DNA from: a virus
Lineage: Duplodnaviria > Heunggongvirae > Uroviricota > Caudoviricetes
Virus record (IMG/VR): IMGVR_UViG_2627854098_000001
Strand: one strand, 5' to 3'
DNA length: 44,371 bases
The notes beneath the pieces are model-generated. The model did no database searches and was not told where the DNA came from. It worked only from the letters and a program-made list of their open reading frames with translations. The position numbers and the translations under genes are program-made. Positions 35,975 through 44,371 of this stretch are shown in pieces; position 1 is the first letter of the stretch; the number at the start of each line of letters is the position of its first letter.

Positions 35975-36550
35975 CAAACGATGATTACATCCGTCTGTTG
36001 TCGGCACTGCTGCCGCCCGGTCCGGCGTGGTCAGCCAGCGATCCGGCGATTGCCGGTGCGGCACAGTCATTAACCCGCGTTCATCAGCGTGCGGATGCCC
36101 TGATGCGGGAGCTGGATCCGCGCACCACCACCGAACTGATAAATCGCTGGGAGCGTCTGTGCGGCCTGCCGGATGAATGTATTCCCGCAGGAACACAGAC
36201 CCTTCGCCAGCGTCAGCAACGACTGGATGCGAAGGTTAACCTGGCGGGCGGCATCAATGAGGATTTTTTACCTTGCACAGCTTGCTGCCCTGGGCAGACC
36301 AGACGCCACCATCACGCGATACGACAAAAGCACGTTCACCTGCTCATCGGCCTGTACTGACGCGGTGAATGCGCCGGAATGGCGGTATTACTGGCAGGTC
36401 AACATGCCAGCCGCCACCAACAGCACCTGGATGACATGTGGCGATCCCTGTGATTCCGCGCTGCGTATCTGGGGCGACACCGTCGTCGAATGTGTGCTTA
36501 ACAAACTCTGCCCTTCGCATACCTACGTAATTTTTAAATATCCGGAGTAA
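35965..36550 (+). pseudogene. DUF2313 (YmfQ-like) tail protein, frameshifted at a T6 run (36264-36269)
   Basis: ORFs 35965-36360 and 36173-36550 join into one gene of about 195 codons if the run is T5 (...[18 protein letters not shown]...). Confidence 0.6.
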
Positions 36551-36553
36551 TCC

Positions 36554-37297
36554 ATGCATCGTATAGACACGAAAACCGCGCAGAAGGATAAGTTCGGCGC
36601 GGGTAAGAACGGTTTTACCCGTGGTAACCCCCAGACAGGCACGCCTGCCACCGATCTGGATGATGACTACTTTGACATGTTGCAGGAAGAACTCTGCAGC
36701 GTGGTGGAGGCATCCGGTGCCAGTCTGGAGAAGGCGCGGCACGACCAGCTGCTTACCGCGCTTCGTGCGCTGCTGTTAAGCCGCAAGAATCCGTTTAGCG
36801 ATATCAAATCGGACGGCACGGTGAAAACGGCTCTCGAAAACCTTGGTTTGGGAGAAGCGGCAAAACGGAATGTGGGCAACGGGGAAAACCAAATCCCTGA
36901 TATGTCTTTCTGGACGGTTACTGGTAGCAATGGAAATTTTGTGATTCGTCAACCTGACGGGCTAATCATTCAGATGGTTACTGTAAGTATAAGCGGCCCA
37001 GTGGCGATGAATGGAATGACTGATAATGCTTATGCCATCACAGGTTCTAATAAGTCTTATATTGCCACAGCCACATTGCCCTTTGTATTTCCTAATAAGG
37101 TGCTGGGCGTTATCCCTCTGGTATCAACAACAGCTTATGGTGGTGTATCCAGTAATATTACAGGTTCATACGCGACGGCGGTTTGTTCTTTTGCCGCTGT
37201 CAGGGGGAATAATACGATTGTGTTCAAAGTCGACAAACCACTGAATGCAGCCTTTCCTTCAGATACCAGCGTCTCAGCGTTAATCATTGGACGGTAA
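36554..37297 (+). CDS. tail fibre protein: constant N-terminal part plus currently expressed variable C-terminus
   Basis: [22 protein letters not shown]-terminus typical of Mu S / P2 H-type fibres; crossover site inside the ORF. Confidence 0.8.
36831..36856. promoter_or_regulatory. left crossover site for Gin/Pin/Hin-family DNA invertase
   Basis: CTCTCGAAAACC-TT-GGTTTGGGAGAA with AAACC-NN-GGTTT core; inverted copy at 38758-38783; both lie in the same reading frame relative to GGT TTG GGA GAA. Confidence 0.7.
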
Positions 37298-37299
37298 TA

Positions 37300-37743
37300 A
37301 TGAACTCAGTATTCTTTTCACCCGGAAGTAAAAGTTTTTATCTGCAAGAATTGTTTCCAGAATATGAGGATGCGGGAACGCTTCCTGATGATGTTATTGA
37401 AATTACCAGAGAAACATATGAGCAATTTCTTGGTCTGCATCCAGAAGGGAAAGAAATTGGCGCTGACAGTTCAGGACGGCCAGTATGGATTAATTCCCCA
37501 CCCCCTTCAAAAGAGGATGAGGTGTTGACGGCTGAAATGAAAAAAATATCTTTGGTTTCAGAAGTCAATACCTACATCAATACCCATCAGTGGCCTGGCA
37601 AAGCTGCTATTGGTCGTCTGAAAGGCGAGGAACTGGCGCAATATAATTCGTGGCTGGATTATCTGGACGCACTGGAACTGGTCGATACTTCCTGTGCGCC
37701 AGATATTGAATGGCCTACGCCTCCGGCAGTTCAGGCCAGATGA
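37300..37743 (+). CDS. tail fibre assembly protein (Tfa), paired with the expressed fibre
   Basis: Directly downstream of fibre gene; C-terminal DIEWPTPP motif shared with the opposite-strand Tfa. Confidence 0.75.
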   Translation: MNSVFFSPGSKSFYLQELFPEYEDAGTLPDDVIEITRETYEQFLGLHPEGKEIGADSSGRPVWINSPPPSKEDEVLTAEMKKISLVSEVNTYINTHQWPGKAAIGRLKGEELAQYNSWLDYLDALELVDTSCAPDIEWPTPPAVQAR

Positions 37744-38317
37744 CATCCGGCGCTGTGCTGGTATTTGTTGCCGTCACCGCGTCAATGTAATCCAGCACAG
37801 CGTTAAGCCGGGTTGTTTCTGCCTGCATCAGCTTCCGTCCGGCCTGTAATTTCAGCTGAATCAGACCGATGGAAGCCATTGCAGCATCAATCAGTGACTG
37901 ACGCTGTGCTTCTGCCGCGTCTACTGCGGCGCTATGCTGTGCCTCAGTATCGGTCACCCATTTCTCACCATCCCATTTATCGTATGGCGTTAATGGGGCA
38001 ATAGTGGTTGTATTTTCGGGGTAATCACCCGGTGCTGTGATTTGTTTTGATTCTCCCGTTTCGGTGTTATAGACGATTTCACCGCGATGGTCTGGCACAT
38101 ATTCCCATGAATTTAAATTCACAGAACGACAGATAGCATAACCCGCCTTATGTATACCTGGTGCATCCAGACAGGAATATGCCGGGATACCAACACCAAC
38201 GGCAAGATATTCACTTGAAGTGGAAATATATTCCCGAGTTTCACCATCATAGTTATAAACGGTAATATCCCCTGCCTTTGTAGCAACAAGTCCACTATTT
38301 AATATTGCTTTATCCAT
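37715..38317 (-). CDS. alternative tail fibre assembly protein (Tfa'), opposite orientation
   Basis: Convergent with Tfa; C-terminal DVIWPELPE motif; follows the alternative fibre cassette on the minus strand. Confidence 0.75.
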   Translation of the reverse strand: MDKAILNSGLVATKAGDITVYNYDGETREYISTSSEYLAVGVGIPAYSCLDAPGIHKAGYAICRSVNLNSWEYVPDHRGEIVYNTETGESKQITAPGDYPENTTTIAPLTPYDKWDGEKWVTDTEAQHSAAVDAAEAQRQSLIDAAMASIGLIQLKLQAGRKLMQAETTRLNAVLDYIDAVTATNTSTAPDVIWPELPEA

Positions 38318-38770
38318 TATGCTGCTCTCACGATATAGTTAAATGCAATGTTGCGTGGACGGGTATCGACGGGGTTAACGGCCACTGTACCCGACACGGA
38401 CTGGTCATTACCGTTGCTAACGGTAATGTTACTACTGGTTGATCCAATCCCTACTGAATCGGTAAATTTAGCACCTGAGCCGCTCAAAGTTCCCGAGATG
38501 ATAGCTAGCTCCACATAAAAAGTACCTACAGTTGGCTCTTGTGTTGACAGCACCGCACGCCTTGAATCAACGCCGCGCCCATCATCCCAGCCACGAATAA
38601 ACTCACCACGTAAATCAGGCAATTTATTTGTCGGATAAGCCTTTGCCAGTTCCGGGTATTCTTCAGCAGAAAAAGCCGCACCGTTGCATTTCAGCCAGCC
38701 TGTTGGCGGTGTGGCTGAAGGCCATGGAACAGGCACACCAACAGGTAATGCAGAGCCTTCTCCCAAACCA
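38317..38770 (-). other. silent alternative tail-fibre C-terminal cassette (start-less by design; would be expressed after inversion)
   Basis: Phage fibre receptor-binding C-terminus (GWLKCNGAAF...LPDLRGEFIRGWDDGRGVD...NIAFNYIVRA); begins at the right crossover site in frame with the constant part. Confidence 0.7.
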
Positions 38771-38783
38771 ACGTTTATGAAAA
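38758..38783. promoter_or_regulatory. right crossover site for DNA invertase (inverted relative to left site)
   Basis: Minus-strand read TTTTCATAAACG-TT-GGTTTGGGAGAA; shares at least 15 bp with the left site in inverted orientation. Confidence 0.65.
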
Positions 38784-38785
38784 TG
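38777..38785. repeat. target-site duplication ATGAAAATG (left copy) of IS66 copy B
   Basis: Identical 9-mer at 41485-41493 abutting the other IS end (8 bp expected for IS66; 9th base may be coincidence). Confidence 0.75.
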
Positions 38786-38838
38786 GTAACCGGCTCATTT
38801 AAACCGTCTGGTCTGTTTCCTCCGGCTCTACAAAAATA

Positions 38839-39516
38839 ATGTCCATCATTTTTAATGGACACTATCGTATGAAACACCGGACCTGGATCACTGAAGCTTT
38901 ACGTCTTCACTTTGAAGAACATTTACCCCGGGTTGTGGCCGGGCGTCGCCTGGGTGTACCAAAATCAACAGTTTGTAGTATGTTCGTGCGCTTTCGGAGA
39001 GCTGGCCTTTCGTGGCCTTTGCCCGCAGGCATGTCGGAGCAGGAACTTGATGCCTGCCTTTACGGACAATTTTCCACGGTACCAGTCGTACGTCCTGAAA
39101 GCACCGTTATATCCGAAGCCCCCGTGGTAAAAAAACGTCCCCGGCGGCCCAACTTCCCTTATGAGTTTAAAATCGCCTTAGTGGAGCAGTCACTGCAGCC
39201 CGGAGCCTGTGTGGCGCAGATCGCCCGGGAAAACGGAATCAACGATAACCTGCTCTTCAACTGGCGCCATCAATACCGGAAAGGTGGCCTGCTGCCTTCC
39301 GGAAAAAATATGCCGGCACTGCTTCCCGTGACGTTAACGCCGGAGCCGGATAATAAAATCCCGGCCCCCGCACAGGAACCAGAGCAGATAAATACACCGT
39401 CCGACAGTCTGTGTTGTGAGCTGGTTCTGCCGGCCGGAACTCTCAGGCTTAAAGGTAAACTGACGCCGGCGTTATTACAGACACTTATCCGCGAAATAAA
39501 AGGGAGCAGCCACTGA
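38839..39516 (+). CDS. tnpA: IS66 TnpA (orf1)
   Basis: Identical to copy A. Confidence 0.75.
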   Translation: MSIIFNGHYRMKHRTWITEALRLHFEEHLPRVVAGRRLGVPKSTVCSMFVRFRRAGLSWPLPAGMSEQELDACLYGQFSTVPVVRPESTVISEAPVVKKRPRRPNFPYEFKIALVEQSLQPGACVAQIARENGINDNLLFNWRHQYRKGGLLPSGKNMPALLPVTLTPEPDNKIPAPAQEPEQINTPSDSLCCELVLPAGTLRLKGKLTPALLQTLIREIKGSSH

Positions 39517-39863
39517 TGATATCTCTCCCTGCAGGTTCGCGTATCTGGCTGGTTGCAGGTATCACCGATATGCGAAATGGCTTTAACGGCCTGGCATCAA
39601 AAGTTCAGAACGTCCTGAAGGATGACCCGTTCTCCGGACACCTGTTCATCTTCCGCGGACGCCGGGGTGACCAGATAAAAGTGTTGTGGGCTGACAGTGA
39701 CGGACTGTGCCTCTTCACCAAACGCCTGGAGCGGGGCCGCTTCGTCTGGCCAGTCACCCGTGACGGCAAGGTGCACCTTACTCCGGCTCAGTTATCCATG
39801 CTTCTTGAAGGTATCAACTGGAAGCACCCGAAACGAACGGAACGCGCTGGAATCCGCATATAA
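39516..39863 (+). CDS. tnpB: IS66 TnpB
   Basis: ATGA overlap with tnpA; conserved IS66 orf2. Confidence 0.85.
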   Translation: MISLPAGSRIWLVAGITDMRNGFNGLASKVQNVLKDDPFSGHLFIFRGRRGDQIKVLWADSDGLCLFTKRLERGRFVWPVTRDGKVHLTPAQLSMLLEGINWKHPKRTERAGIRI

Positions 39864-39882
39864 CCCGTTGTAAAGTGAGGAT

Positions 39883-41454
39883 ATGGACACCTCACTTGCT
39901 CATGAGAACGCCCGCCTGCGGGCACTGTTGCAGACGCAACAGGACACCATCCGCCAGATGGCTGAATACAACCGCCTGCTCTCACAGCGGGTGGCGGCTT
40001 ATGCTTCCGAAATCAACCGGCTGAAGGCGCTGGTTGCGAAACTGCAACGTATGCAGTTCGGTAAAAGCTCAGAAAAACTTCGTGCAAAAACCGAACGGCA
40101 GATACAGGAAGCACAGGAGCGAATCAGCGCACTTCAGGAAGAAATGGCGGAAACGCTGGGTGAGCAATATGACCCGGTACTGCCATCCGCCCTGCGCCAG
40201 TCTTCAGCCCGTAAACCGTTACCGGCCTCACTTCCCCGTGAAACCCGGGTTATCCGGCCGGAAGAGGAATGCTGTCCTGCCTGTGGTGGTGAACTCAGTT
40301 CTCTGGGATGTGATGTGTCAGAGCAACTGGAGCTTATCAGCAGCGCCTTTAAGGTTATCGAAACACAACGTCCGAAACAGGCCTGTTGCCGGTGCGACCA
40401 TATCGTGCAGGCACCAGTACCTTCAAAACCCATTGCACGCAGTTATGCCGGAGCGGGGCTTCTGGCCCATGTTGTCACCGGGAAATATGCAGACCATCTG
40501 CCGTTATACCGCCAGTCAGAAATATACCGTCGTCAGGGAGTGGAGCTGAGCCGTGCCACACTGGGGCGCTGGACAGGTGCTGTTGCTGAACTGCTGGAGC
40601 CGCTGTATGACGTCCTGCGCCAGTATGTGCTGATGCCCGGTAAAGTCCATGCTGATGATATCCCCGTCCCGGTCCAGGAGCCGGGCAGCGGTAAAACCCG
40701 GACAGCCCGGCTGTGGGTCTACGTCCGTGATGACCGTAACGCCGGTTCACAGATGCCCCCGGCGGTCTGGTTCGCGTACAGTCCGGACCGGAAAGGTATC
40801 CATCCACAAAATCACCTGGCCGGTTACAGCGGTGTGCTTCAGGCCGATGCTTACGGTGGTTACCGGGCGTTATACGAATCCGGCAGAATAACGGAAGCCG
40901 CGTGTATGGCTCATGCCCGGAGAAAAATCCACGATGTGCATGCAAGAGCGCCCACCTACATCACCACGGAAGCCCTGCAGCGTATCGGTGAACTGTATGC
41001 CATCGAGGCAGAGGTCCGGGGCTGTTCAGCAGAACAGCGTCTGGCGGCAAGAAAAGCCAGAGCCGCGCCACTGATGCAGTCACTGTATGACTGGATACAG
41101 CAACAGATGAAAACACTGTCGCGTCACTCAGATACGGCAAAAGCGTTCGCATACCTGCTGAAACAGTGGGATGCACTGAACGTGTACTGCAGTAATGGCT
41201 GGGTGGAAATCGACAACAACATCGCAGAGAACGCCTTACGGGGAGTGGCCGTAGGCCGGAAAAACTGGATGTTCGCGGGTTCCGACAGCGGTGGTGAACA
41301 TGCGGCGGTGTTGTACTCGCTGATCGGCACATGCCGTCTGAACAATGTGGAGCCAGAAAAGTGGCTGCGTTACGTCATTGAACATATCCAGGACTGGCCG
41401 GCAAACCGGGTACGCGATCTGTTGCCCTGGAAAGTTGATCTGAGCTCTCAGTAA
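39883..41454 (+). CDS. tnpC: IS66 transposase TnpC (intact, 523 aa)
   Basis: Full-length ORF with N-terminal coiled-coil/leucine zipper, CxxC zinc-finger and DDE-type region. Confidence 0.9.
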
Positions 41455-41484
41455 ATATCAATACGGTTCTGACGAGTCGCTTAC

Positions 41485-41493
41485 ATGAAAATG
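41485..41493. repeat. target-site duplication ATGAAAATG (right copy) of IS66 copy B
   Basis: Matches 38777-38785. Confidence 0.75.
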
Positions 41494-41545
41494 CAGAAAT
41501 AACGAGCAAATGGCATCATTCCTGCTTTTGTCAGGGAGATCTACC

Positions 41546-41674
41546 ATGCTTATTGGCTATGTACGTGTGTCAACAAATGACCAGAACACAGATCTACAAC
41601 GTAATGCGCTGAACTGTGCAGGATGCGAGCTGATTTTTGAAGACAAGATAAGCGGTACAAAGTCCGAGACCTAG
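41546..41674 (+). pseudogene. pin: serine DNA invertase (Pin/Gin/Hin family), N-terminal 42-codon remnant
   Basis: MLIGYVRVSTNDQNTDLQRNAL.CAGCE.IFEDK.SGT matches the invertase N-terminus including catalytic Ser; similarity stops and a stop codon follows at 41672-41674. Confidence 0.8.
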
Positions 41675-41769
41675 GGCTGACACTGCTGTTCTTGATGCAA
41701 ATTAAAGTATTTAATAGTGAGTAGCGGCCTTACTAATGTAAGGCCACTATAATCATTTTATTAATTGCA

Positions 41770-41966
41770 TTAATCGTGTTTTGGCCATACTTTCAATGCA
41801 ATTTCCCCCAACTTTTTACCCCGCTCCAGGATTTCATCCTCATCCCATTTATCCTTAACTATAAGTGGAATGTTCAGTCGTAGATTGGTGTGGACGATGA
41901 GAGCATCACGTTTTTTCAGAAATACAGCATTCTGAACAGAACGGTTTACGCTAAGGTTAAGCAAAG
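41770..41966 (-). pseudogene. 3' fragment of an unidentified gene truncated by the third IS66-family element
   Basis: Called ORF 41770-42048 starts inside the IS; only the C-terminal 65 codons lie outside; no family recognised. Confidence 0.35.
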
Positions 41967-42037
41967 GTAAGCGTACAGCCTGAACCGTCTGGTCAGAATC
42001 TGACGAATTAGACAAAGTGGTGTCCACCAAATAAGTA

Positions 42038-42439
42038 GTGGGAACCAAAGTGTCAGATATGCAGAAAAATGTGACTCCCGGCAGGCGAAAAGGCTGCCCT
42101 AATTATCCTCCCGAATTTAAACAGCAGCTCGTTGCTGCCTCCTGTGAACCCGGGATATCCATCTCAAAACTTGCTCTTGAAAATGGCATTAACGCCAATC
42201 TGTTGTTCAAATGGCGACAACAATGGCGCGAGGGAAAGCTGCTATTACCTTCTTCAGAGAGCCCCCAGCTACTTCCTGTGACTCTCGATGCAGCTGCCGA
42301 ACAGCCAGAATCGCTCGCAGAGGACCCGGAAACCCTCAGTATCAGCTGTGAGGTAACGTTCCGGCACGGGACGCTCCGCTTCAATGGCAATGTCAGCGAA
42401 AAGCTCCTGACTCTGCTGATACAGGAACTGAAGCGATGA
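42038..42439 (+). CDS. tnpA: IS66-family TnpA (133 aa)
   Basis: Homologous to copy A/B TnpA (PNYPPEFKQQLVAAS...NLLFKWRQQWREG). Confidence 0.8.
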   Translation: MGTKVSDMQKNVTPGRRKGCPNYPPEFKQQLVAASCEPGISISKLALENGINANLLFKWRQQWREGKLLLPSSESPQLLPVTLDAAAEQPESLAEDPETLSISCEVTFRHGTLRFNGNVSEKLLTLLIQELKR

Positions 42440-42783
42440 TCCCGTTACCTTCCGGGACCAAAATTTGGCTGGTTGCCGGTATCACTGATATGAGAAATGG
42501 CTTCAACGGCCTGGCTGCGAAAGTACAGACGGCGCTGAAAGACGATCCCATGTCCGGCCATGTTTTCATTTTCCGGGGCCGCAGCGGCAGTCAGGTTAAA
42601 CTGCTGTGGTCCACCGGTGACGGACTGTGCCTCCTGACCAAACGGCTGGAGCGTGGGCGCTTCGCCTGGCCGTCAGCCCGTGATGGCAAAGTGTTCCTTA
42701 CACAGGCGCAGCTGGCGATGCTGCTGGAAGGTATCGACTGGCGACAGCCTAAGCGGCTGCTGACCTCCCTGACCATGCTGTAA
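42436..42783 (+). CDS. tnpB: IS66-family TnpB (115 aa)
   Basis: Same length and conserved blocks as copy A/B TnpB; ATGA overlap. Confidence 0.85.
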
Positions 42784-42832
42784 ATCTCTTTATCCTGGTT
42801 GTCACAGAATAAGCCCGGTAAAATACGGGCTT

Positions 42833-44371
42833 ATGAACGACATCTCTTCTGACGACATCTTCCTGCTGAAACAGCGCCTGGCCGAACAGGAAGCGCTGAT
42901 CCACGCCCTGCAGGAAAAGCTGAGCAACCGGGAGCGCGAAATAGACCATCTGCAGGCGCAGCTGGATAAACTCCGCCGGATGAACTTCGGCAGTCGTTCC
43001 GAAAAAGTCTCCCGCCGTATCGCACAAATGGAAGCCGATCTGAACCGGCTTCAGAAAGAGAGCGATACGCTGACTGGTAGGGTGTATGACCCGGCAGTAC
43101 AGCGTCCGTTGCGTCAGACCCGCACCCGTAAGCCGTTCCCTGAATCACTACCCCGTGACGAAAAGCGACTGTTGCCTGCGGCGCCGTGCTGCCCGAACTG
43201 CGGCGGTTCACTGAGCTATCTGGGCGAGGATACCGCCGAACAGCTGGAGTTGATGCGTAGCGCCTTCCGGGTTATCCGGACGGTACGGGAAAAACATGCC
43301 TGTACTCAGTGCGATGCCATCGTGCAGGCACCTGCACCTTCGCGGCCCATCGAGCGGGGTATCGCCGGACCGGGGCTGCTGGCCCGCGTGCTGACCTCGA
43401 AGTATGCAGAGCACACCCCGCTGTATCGCCAGTCAGAAATATACGGCCGGCAAGGTGTGGAGCTGAGCCGTTCACTGCTGTCGGGCTGGGTGGATGCATG
43501 CTGCCGGCTGCTGTCTCCGCTGGAAGAGGCGCTTCATGGCTATGTGCTGACTGACGGTAAGCTCCATGCTGATGACACGCCTGTCCCGGTGCTGTTGCCA
43601 GGCAATAAGAAAACGAAGACCGGGCGGTTATGGACCTACGTTCGTGACGACCGTAACGCCGGGTCAACGCTGGCGCCGGCGGTGTGGTTCGCTTACAGCC
43701 CGGACAGAAAAGGCATCCATCCGCAGACCCATCTTGCGGGGTTCAGTGGTGTACTGCAGGCGGATGCATACGCCGGGTTCAACGAGCTGTACCGGGATGG
43801 CCGGATAACGGAAGCCGCCTGTTGGGCTCACGCCCGCCGTAAAATCCACGATGTGCACGTTCGCACCCCGTCAGCCCTGACGGAGGAAGCGCTGAAACGG
43901 ATCGGCGAACTGTACGCCATCGAGGCAGAGATAAGGGGAATGACGGCGGAGCAGCGCCTTGCCGAACGTCAGTTGAAAACGAAACCGCTGCTGAAATCCC
44001 TGGAAAGCTGGCTGCGTGAAAAGATGAAAACCCTGTCGCGACACTCAGAACTGGCGAAAGCGTTCGCATACGCCCTGAACCAGTGGCCGGCGCTGACGTA
44101 CTATGCAGATGATGGCTGGGCTGAGGCGGACAATAACATCGCTGAAAATGCGTTGCGGATGGTCAGTCTGGGCCGCAAAAACTACCTGTTCTTCGGTTCG
44201 GATCATGGAGGAGAGCGGGGAGCGCTGCTGTACAGCCTGATCGGGACGTGCAAACTGAACGGAGTGGAGCCAGAAAGCTACCTCCGCTATGTCCTTGACG
44301 TCATAGCCGACTGGCCGATAAACCGGGTCGGCGAACTGCTCCCCTGGCGCGTAGCACTGCCGACTGAATAA
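42833..44371 (+). CDS. tnpC: IS66-family transposase TnpC (512 aa)
   Basis: Homologous throughout to copy B TnpC; stop codon is the last triplet of the window. Confidence 0.85.

Follow-up and report, generated by a model that had tools for sequence, protein, structure and literature searches.

Evidence for inversion of an orphaned e14-type tail-fibre switch after the loss of its own invertase

Is a phage tail-fibre switch fixed in its present orientation once its own recombinase has been reduced to a fragment? This question is raised by a locus in a 44,371-nucleotide stretch of DNA, in the following called the window, which is recorded as a virus of the Caudoviricetes (IMG/VR record IMGVR_UViG_2627854098_000001) and which matches the chromosome of the avian pathogenic Escherichia coli (APEC) strain IMT5155 (NZ_CP005930.1) with 100% identity. 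IMT5155 is typed as O2:K1:H5, sequence type (ST) 140, within the ST95 complex (IMT5155 genome paper). The locus is an invertible tail-fibre switch of the e14 type (P segment) that has lost its own recombinase: the invertase gene pin is a stub, and an insertion sequence (IS) of the IS66 family separates this stub from the segment. A preliminary description, made from the window sequence alone, had considered the fibre to be probably locked in its current orientation. We consider it likely instead that this orphaned switch, which appears to retain all its cis-acting parts, is still inverted in trans, with the invertase of a P2-family prophage in the same chromosome as the most probable supplier.

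A lock is contradicted by the comparison with two other strains, DE17 from a duck in China and VTB96815v from a chicken in South Africa, which carry the same ISCro1 insertion, the same pin stub, the same split GmrSD restriction gene and the same second IS as IMT5155. Over window positions 36500-42100, DE17 is identical to IMT5155 except for an exact inversion of 36858-38756 (1,899 bp, 0 mismatches), which is bounded by the two crossover sites. VTB96815v has the gene order of DE17, i.e. the opposite of IMT5155. Since one insertion takes place in one molecule, its descendants can show both orientations only if the segment inverted at least once after the IS insertion and hence after the truncation of pin. 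The comparison thus indicates that the segment inverted after both lesions and that the switch is not locked in this lineage. The annotation of a recombinase as a pseudogene is no proof that a neighbouring invertible segment is fixed.

The architecture of the locus (Table 1) shares several features with the switches of the Din family. The motif TTCTCCCAAACCAANGTTT has exactly two matches in the window, in inverted orientation (36838-36856 on the minus strand and 38758-38776 on the plus strand), where none is expected by chance, and they belong to two inverted 26-bp crossover sites, each with a 2-bp core. The right site is identical to the right sites of K-12 e14, pro483 and L003. According to the open reading frames (ORFs) and Pfam domains, two alternative C-terminal cassettes, each with its own assembly gene, are combined with a constant N-terminal part that lies outside the segment. 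As currently assembled, the tail-fibre gene consists of this constant part up to the left site and a variable C-terminal cassette, with a weak Pfam Gp53-like_C match under the curated cut-off. In DE17, the same fibre start is joined to the other cassette, which results in a protein of likewise 247 amino acids (WP_000554665.1); the StfE-type cassette, silent in IMT5155, follows the constant part in DE17 as well as in VTB96815v. The occurrence of the segment in both orientations, with exchange at the sites, is a further Din-family feature. What is absent is a complete adjacent gene for a serine invertase with Resolvase and HTH_7 domains. The locus shares with the P segment of K-12 e14 both 26-bp crossover sites and a block order that runs from ymfQ over the fibre gene, tfa, tfaE (reverse) and the silent stfE-type fibre cassette (reverse) to pin. 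It differs in its setting, because K-12 e14 is a 15-kb remnant at icd, whereas the element here comprises ~48 kb at ssrA, and in the presence of ISCro1 between the right site and the stub.

Table 1. Features of the orphaned tail-fibre switch and its flanks, in window coordinates
Feature	Position (strand)	Size	Sequence, domains and annotation
Tail-fibre gene as currently assembled	36554..37297 (+)	247 aa	WP_039267671.1 (RefSeq)
Left crossover site	36831-36856	26 bp	CTCTCGAAAACC TT GGTTTGGGAGAA; core TT at 36843-36844; identical to the left site of the K-12 e14 P segment
Invertible segment	36858-38756	1,899 bp	Found exactly reverse-complemented in DE17
Tail-fibre assembly gene of the expressed cassette	37300..37743 (+)	147 aa	Pfam Caudo_TAP, E = 5.9e-28; WP_001089535.1
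TfaE-type tail-fibre assembly gene of the silent cassette	37715..38317 (-)	200 aa	Pfam Caudo_TAP, E = 4.4e-30; WP_000356380.1 (tfaE)
Silent alternative fibre C-terminal cassette, StfE-type	38317..38784 (-)		Phage tail collar domain; Pfam Collar, E = 9.3e-16
Right crossover site, intact	38758-38783	26 bp	TTCTCCCAAACC AA CGTTTATGAAAA; core AA at 38770-38771
Target duplication, left copy	38777-38785		ATGAAAATG; 7 of 9 bp inside the outer half-site
ISCro1-type IS66-family element, copy B	38786..41484 (+)	2,699 bp	tnpA 225 aa, tnpB 115 aa, tnpC 523 aa
Target duplication, right copy	41485-41493		ATGAAAATG
Spacer between crossover site and pin	41494..41545		Holds the minus-strand ATG (41516-41514) of the StfE-type ORF
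pin stub	41546..41674 (+)		MLIGYVRVSTNDQNTDLQRNALNCAGCELIFEDKISGTKSET, then stop; 41 pinE-homologous codons including catalytic Ser-9, followed by Thr and the stop codon
Region homologous to the Fis-dependent recombinational enhancer	41567..41630		Gene nt 22-85; candidate Fis cores GTGTCAACAAATGAC and GTGCAGGATGCGAGC
GmrSD type IV restriction gene, C-terminal fragment	41770..41966 (-)	Last 65 codons	Pfam GmrSD_C, 85-137/138; RefSeq partial GmrSD
Second, different IS66-family element	41967..44371 (+)		Ends ~37 bp past the window; splits GmrSD; RefSeq tnpA/tnpB/tnpC

The first of the two lesions concerns the invertase gene. The pin stub matches Pfam Resolvase over positions 2-48 of 145 (37.6 bits, cut-off 23.3) and is identical to the first 123 nucleotides of K-12 pinE at 119 positions. 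In a breakpoint alignment, the similarity to pin stops at ~41668, where it is abutted by the 3' flank of GmrSD (41669-41769); the remainder of this gene is found by RefSeq beyond the second IS. In K-12 e14, the position of GmrSD is occupied by mcrA, another type IV restriction gene, so that the locus differs from e14 in that pin stops after codon 41 and a reverse GmrSD replaces both the pin 3' end and mcrA. RefSeq lists the stub as a pseudogene ('recombinase family protein, incomplete, missing C-terminus'), and tblastn over the window and the 6 kb downstream gave no other sequence resembling pin. With the rest of its catalytic domain and its DNA-binding domain lost, the cis invertase is dead. 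In this respect the preliminary description was accurate: it had recognized an invertase-related ORF at 41546 that keeps the catalytic-serine region and continues into unrelated sequence, and Pfam, the pinE alignment and the RefSeq pseudogene call all agree, with no intact invertase ORF in the 6 kb downstream.

The second lesion is the insertion of copy B of ISCro1, which RefSeq labels as tnpA, tnpB and an ISCro1-family transposase. Its start lies 2 bp outside the complete right crossover site. Its coordinates correspond to what had been described earlier, and this also holds for the overlap of the target duplication with the distal half-site; the overlap comprises 7 bp of the outer half-site, and the segment side keeps the whole site. 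Like other members of the IS66 family, the element has the gene order tnpA-tnpB-tnpC and GTAA...TTAC ends (GTAACCGG...CGCTTAC) with imperfect terminal inverted repeats, and a second ISCro1 copy in the window, copy A, is flanked by the usual 8-bp duplication (CGTTGATA). Copy B differs by a duplication of 9 bp. This was checked against the empty site of the IS-free relative L004 (strain 729_270514_x_12), where ATGAAAATG is present as a single copy within ...CGTTTATGAAAATGCAGAAA..., which means that the duplication is truly 9 bp long.

The preliminary description had implied a single disabling event, and this does not agree with the distribution of the two lesions. L004 has the same stub and the same junction beside an intact GmrSD gene (DUF262, WP_000834402.1), with an IS at neither place, so that the IS as the cause of the truncation is rejected. 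The stub-GmrSD junction without the IS is present in ~180 complete genomes, mostly of the ST95 complex, including UTI89, S88, NU14, APEC O1, IHE3034 and the type strain ATCC 11775. ISCro1 at the crossover site together with the IS in GmrSD is found in only three genomes, namely IMT5155, DE17 and VTB96815v. Since stub and junction are present in so many IS-free genomes, the truncation predates the IS, and the comparison points to two separate events, of which the insertion was by far the later one.

For a wider view of the orientation, searches were made with both orientations of an IS-free 760-bp query, which ran from the segment end over the site and the stub to the junction. The IMT-like orientation gave 27 full-length matches (~24 of them spanning the stub-GmrSD junction) and the opposite orientation 159; these totals may contain a few genomes whose pin is intact. 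Both orientations are found within O1:K1:H7 (APEC O1 versus APEC E16002) and O2:K1:H5 (IMT5155 versus E19035). They also differ between IHE3034 and UTI89, both presumably O18:K1:H7, judging from the title of the IMT5155 genome paper. If these serotype groups are taken as clades, both states within serotypes suggest several independent inversions. The ST95 complex, a major lineage among the extraintestinal pathogens of birds and humans, carries a lineage-wide orphan switch whose state differs among near-identical genomes. The stub-GmrSD junction is also located beside different fibre cassettes, for example in NZ_AP021944.1 and NZ_CP069692.1, where only query positions 265-760 match, at ~97% identity. 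The truncated pin allele thus also goes together with other variable segments.

Which enzyme could act on the orphaned segment? The Din family is well known, and trans complementation within it has long been known. In line with an earlier suggestion that a related invertase of the Gin/Pin family elsewhere in the genome may act in trans, IMT5155 encodes an intact 188-amino-acid invertase with full Resolvase and HTH_7 domains (WP_000905030.1, NZ_CP005930.1 3799054-3799620), annotated as 'recombinase family protein'. It was found in the scan of 3.795-3.845 Mb, and the annotation of 0.84-0.89, 3.875-3.925, 3.95-4.00, 4.03-4.08 and 4.092-4.192 Mb contains no invertase. The gene is located in a P2-family prophage next to ybjL (3794628-3806909), which carries an invertible segment of its own with fibre, tfa, tfa' and a silent cassette; according to the IMT5155 genome paper, the P2-family island GI-18 likely switches fibres by inversion. 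WP_000905030.1 shares 155 of 180 residues with K-12 PinE, and 30 of 45 in the DNA-binding region. The right site of the P2-family prophage, TTCTCCCAAACCAACGTTTAAGAAAA, matches the right site of the orphaned locus at 25 of 26 positions, with identical inner half-site and core, and its left site, TTCCCCCAAACCAAGGTATGTGAGAA, is more diverged. The tail-fibre and invertase region of this prophage is 100% identical in only IMT5155, DE17 and VTB96815v, the three strains that carry the IS, which also speaks for their common descent. For counting pin-like places per genome, a composite query was used that combined a 526-bp tag specific for these three strains with an internal pinE fragment, and it detected one further pinE-type place in IMT5155 besides the stub locus. 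A query extended by a pinQ fragment again matched 2 places, so that this DNA-level search gave no sign of a pinQ-type sequence in the IMT5155 chromosome. The idea that the second pin-like locus is a P2 prophage of the pro483 type was rejected, because megablast found no additional match when integrase and invertase fragments of pro483 were combined with the tag; the prophage that was located is a different variant. From these data we infer that the P2-family invertase is probably the acting enzyme, and the evidence favours action in trans. The cis elements have outlived the enzyme at this locus, and another prophage plausibly supplies the invertase.

There are precedents for this arrangement. 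For PinQ, which the Qin prophage encodes, inversion of the e14 P segment has been reported (PMC12529663); the same paper cites PinE as an invertase of the Mu G segment, and Fin from the P2-like prophage Fels-2 as one of the Salmonella H segment. As in the PinQ/e14 system, the recombinase of one prophage would invert the tail-fibre segment of another, and the inverted repeats TTGGTTTGGGAGAAG(G) are shared. Different from that system, no resident invertase exists here, so that trans action would be the sole route, and the candidate enzyme is PinE-like (155/180), whereas PinQ is identical to a PinE homologue at 70 of 184 positions. As with Fin, the invertase of a P2-family prophage would serve an invertible segment elsewhere in the chromosome. 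In Salmonella, however, the resident hin is intact and Fin is redundant, whereas here only a stub of the resident gene is left, and the target is a tail-fibre gene instead of a flagellin promoter.

Inversion by this enzyme family also involves a Fis-dependent enhancer, and the stub may still provide it. Alignment with K-12 pinE shows that the stub retains nucleotides 1-123 of the gene and therefore the whole enhancer-homologous region, as had been supposed from the window sequence. Six invertase genes were compared, namely the stub, two pinE, the IMT5155 P2-prophage gene, pro483 and Mu gin. In all of them, gene nucleotides 71-85 fit the Fis consensus GNNYRNNWNNYRNNC over 15 bp, and GT(G/A)TCAACAAATGAC is conserved at nucleotides 22-36. 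The candidate cores flank a TAATG element, which is also known from the hin enhancer, where it is flanked by the two Fis sites. With the IS removed, the pin start codon would be 68 bp and the first candidate Fis core ~96 bp from the right-site core; in hin, ~100 bp separate hixL from the proximal Fis site. The IS displaces the enhancer-homologous region from ~0.1 kb to ~2.8 kb off the site. The hin enhancer is reported to be active even when many kb separate it from a site, and the longer loop to permit extra subunit rotations. By analogy, the displacement by 2.8 kb may alter the fidelity of inversion more than it abolishes it. The locus resembles the Mu Gin/G segment and Hin/Fis systems in the serine invertase family and in the 26-bp sites with a 2-bp core. 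Its enhancer-homologous region has the place of the enhancer in those systems, which lies at the 5' end of the invertase gene, ~100 bp away from the closest site, and tolerates displacement by kilobases. The stub region is identical to Mu gin at 95 of 123 positions, and the Fis-consensus core at nucleotides 71-85 is conserved. The difference is that Gin and Hin are active invertases encoded beside their segments, whereas here only a stub with a predicted enhancer role is present.

Taken together, the following course of events is proposed. A GmrSD cassette took the place of everything after pin codon 41 in an ancestor of the ST95 complex, at the position of mcrA in e14. Later, in the sub-lineage of IMT5155, DE17 and VTB96815v, ISCro1 inserted 2 bp outside the right site, with a 9-bp duplication that kept the 26-bp site whole. 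This insertion moved the stub with its enhancer-homologous region from ~0.1 to ~2.8 kb away and cut the minus-strand StfE-type ORF. An invertase supplied in trans would bind both sites, synapsis would occur at the Fis-bound enhancer in the stub, and strands would be exchanged at the TT/AA core. In IMT5155, the probable supplier would be the 188-amino-acid invertase of the P2-family prophage at 3.799 Mb.

Several observations weigh against this proposal. The segment of the P2-family prophage itself has the same orientation in all three strains and is thus uninformative on the activity of its invertase. In K-12, deletion of pinE locks the P segment although pinQ is present (PMC12529663), which implies that trans action at native expression levels can be weak. 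The pinE deletion probably also removed the enhancer, a reading of ours on which the authors are silent. PMV-1, GN06489 and GN06758, three stub genomes in the IMT-like orientation, are without a second pinE- or pinQ-type chromosomal sequence, and their orientation may be a frozen relic. The presence of a second invertase-like sequence was not significantly associated with orientation (8/11 versus 20/41, Fisher p = 0.19), in a comparison that is confounded by relatedness among genomes. The Fis sites are assigned solely by homology and a degenerate consensus. Finally, the host prophage is decaying, with its integrase gene split by ISCro1 copy A and its ymfQ-like gene frameshifted.

Part of these observations, together with the reduction of the cis invertase to 41 codons, would be accounted for if the switch were dead or locked in present-day IMT5155 and the opposite orientation in its relatives went back to one rare past event, with some invertase present at that time; in stub genomes that have no second pinE- or pinQ-type sequence, the orientation would then have to be frozen. 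We regard this as unlikely, because at least one exact inversion took place after both lesions, an intact and closely related invertase is encoded in the same chromosome, and both crossover sites as well as the enhancer-homologous region are intact.

A little less likely still is inversion in trans by a different recombinase, such as a plasmid-borne enzyme, the invertase of a transiently infecting phage or a distant enzyme of the PinQ/PinR type. Both orientations exist in ST95 genomes that do not contain the P2-family prophage, which is 100% identical only in the three IS-bearing strains, and PinQ inverts the e14 segment despite its low identity to the PinE homologue. However, the search at the DNA level gave no pinQ-type sequence in the IMT5155 chromosome, and the P2-family invertase is the only other pinE-type locus found there, with a right site that matches almost completely. 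Highly improbable is an origin of the two states without any site-specific recombinase, by homologous or illegitimate recombination of the host at the short inverted repeat or by an assembly error: the exchange point can be placed only within the 15-bp perfect inverted repeat TTGGTTTGGGAGAAG, but repeats as short as 15 bp are inefficient substrates for RecA-dependent recombination, the breakpoints coincide exactly with the canonical e14 crossover sites, both states recur in many independently assembled complete genomes, and a 15-bp repeat flanking a 1.9-kb segment gives no assembly ambiguity.

Inversion in trans by the P2-family prophage invertase therefore remains the preferred explanation. 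The IS has disrupted a second reading frame, which starts to the right of the segment. The spacer between the right site and pin holds a minus-strand start of the stfE type, as in K-12 e14; its first residues, MPFARYFCIF..., match the K-12 stfE start (MPFACYFFIFINVGLGEG...). If the IS is left out, the frame continues through the right site into the cassette that happens to lie on that side, and in L004 it is annotated as WP_001115559.1 with 163 amino acids. In IMT5155, DE17 and VTB96815v, the insertion shortens it to 11 codons (MPFARYFCIFM, then stop). In K-12, the ORF of the stfE type yields StfE2 upon inversion of the P segment, and StfE2 blocks the adsorption of phage T2 (PMC12529663, 2025). 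The IS-free ST95 relatives carry the same right-hand StfE-type ORF as the PinQ/StfE2 system, and by this analogy its product could be a receptor-blocking anti-phage protein like K-12 StfE2. The difference is that the IS destroys the ORF in IMT5155, so that a right-hand reading frame across the site, as in the anti-phage system, is absent there; in the IS-free relatives this frame is present and uninterrupted.

From these considerations a more speculative proposal arises, which we hold to be doubtful: the 123-nt stub may persist in the ST95 complex not as inert debris but as a cis enhancer that keeps the orphan segment switchable by Pin-type invertases of resident or newly arriving prophages, in IMT5155 the P2-family one, and together with the right-hand StfE-type ORF as a possible anti-phage protein in IS-free strains and GmrSD it would form a composite defence locus. 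That the stub works as an enhancer we infer from its homology; if this is true, the prophages that a host carries would decide which of two fibre or StfE-type proteins it makes. The locus thus raises three questions, namely whether one prophage controls the switch of another, whether the stub is a natural enhancer-only remnant, and whether it is a defence-type ORF, rather than the switch, that was lost through the IS. Should all three be answered in the negative, the locus represents ordinary prophage decay.

The host prophage itself (~48 kb, integrated at ssrA) has a full set of tail and baseplate genes, in which Mu/P2-like baseplate genes precede the e14-like block, and the switch is located at its tail end. 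ISCro1 copy A (window 1273-3970, minus strand, 2,698 bp) differs from copy B by one substitution and a 1-bp deletion (99.9% identical), and its transposase is frameshifted according to RefSeq. Because copy A splits the integrase gene, excision of the prophage has probably been lost. The frameshift in the ymfQ-like baseplate gene lies at window position 36269, where IMT5155 has a T6 run and DE17 a T5 run; the gene is annotated as intact in DE17 and VTB96815v. It reflects either real decay or a homopolymer sequencing error of the IMT5155 assembly. Elsewhere in the chromosome, the region 4.10-4.19 Mb of NZ_CP005930.1 contains a lambdoid prophage at icd with iss and two IS66-family insertions, which is followed by an element resembling an integrative and conjugative element, with a PilV shufflon and a tyrosine recombinase. 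Beyond this element, the gene order continues at zinT/hchA, a jump that implies a large inversion of the chromosome in comparison with K-12.

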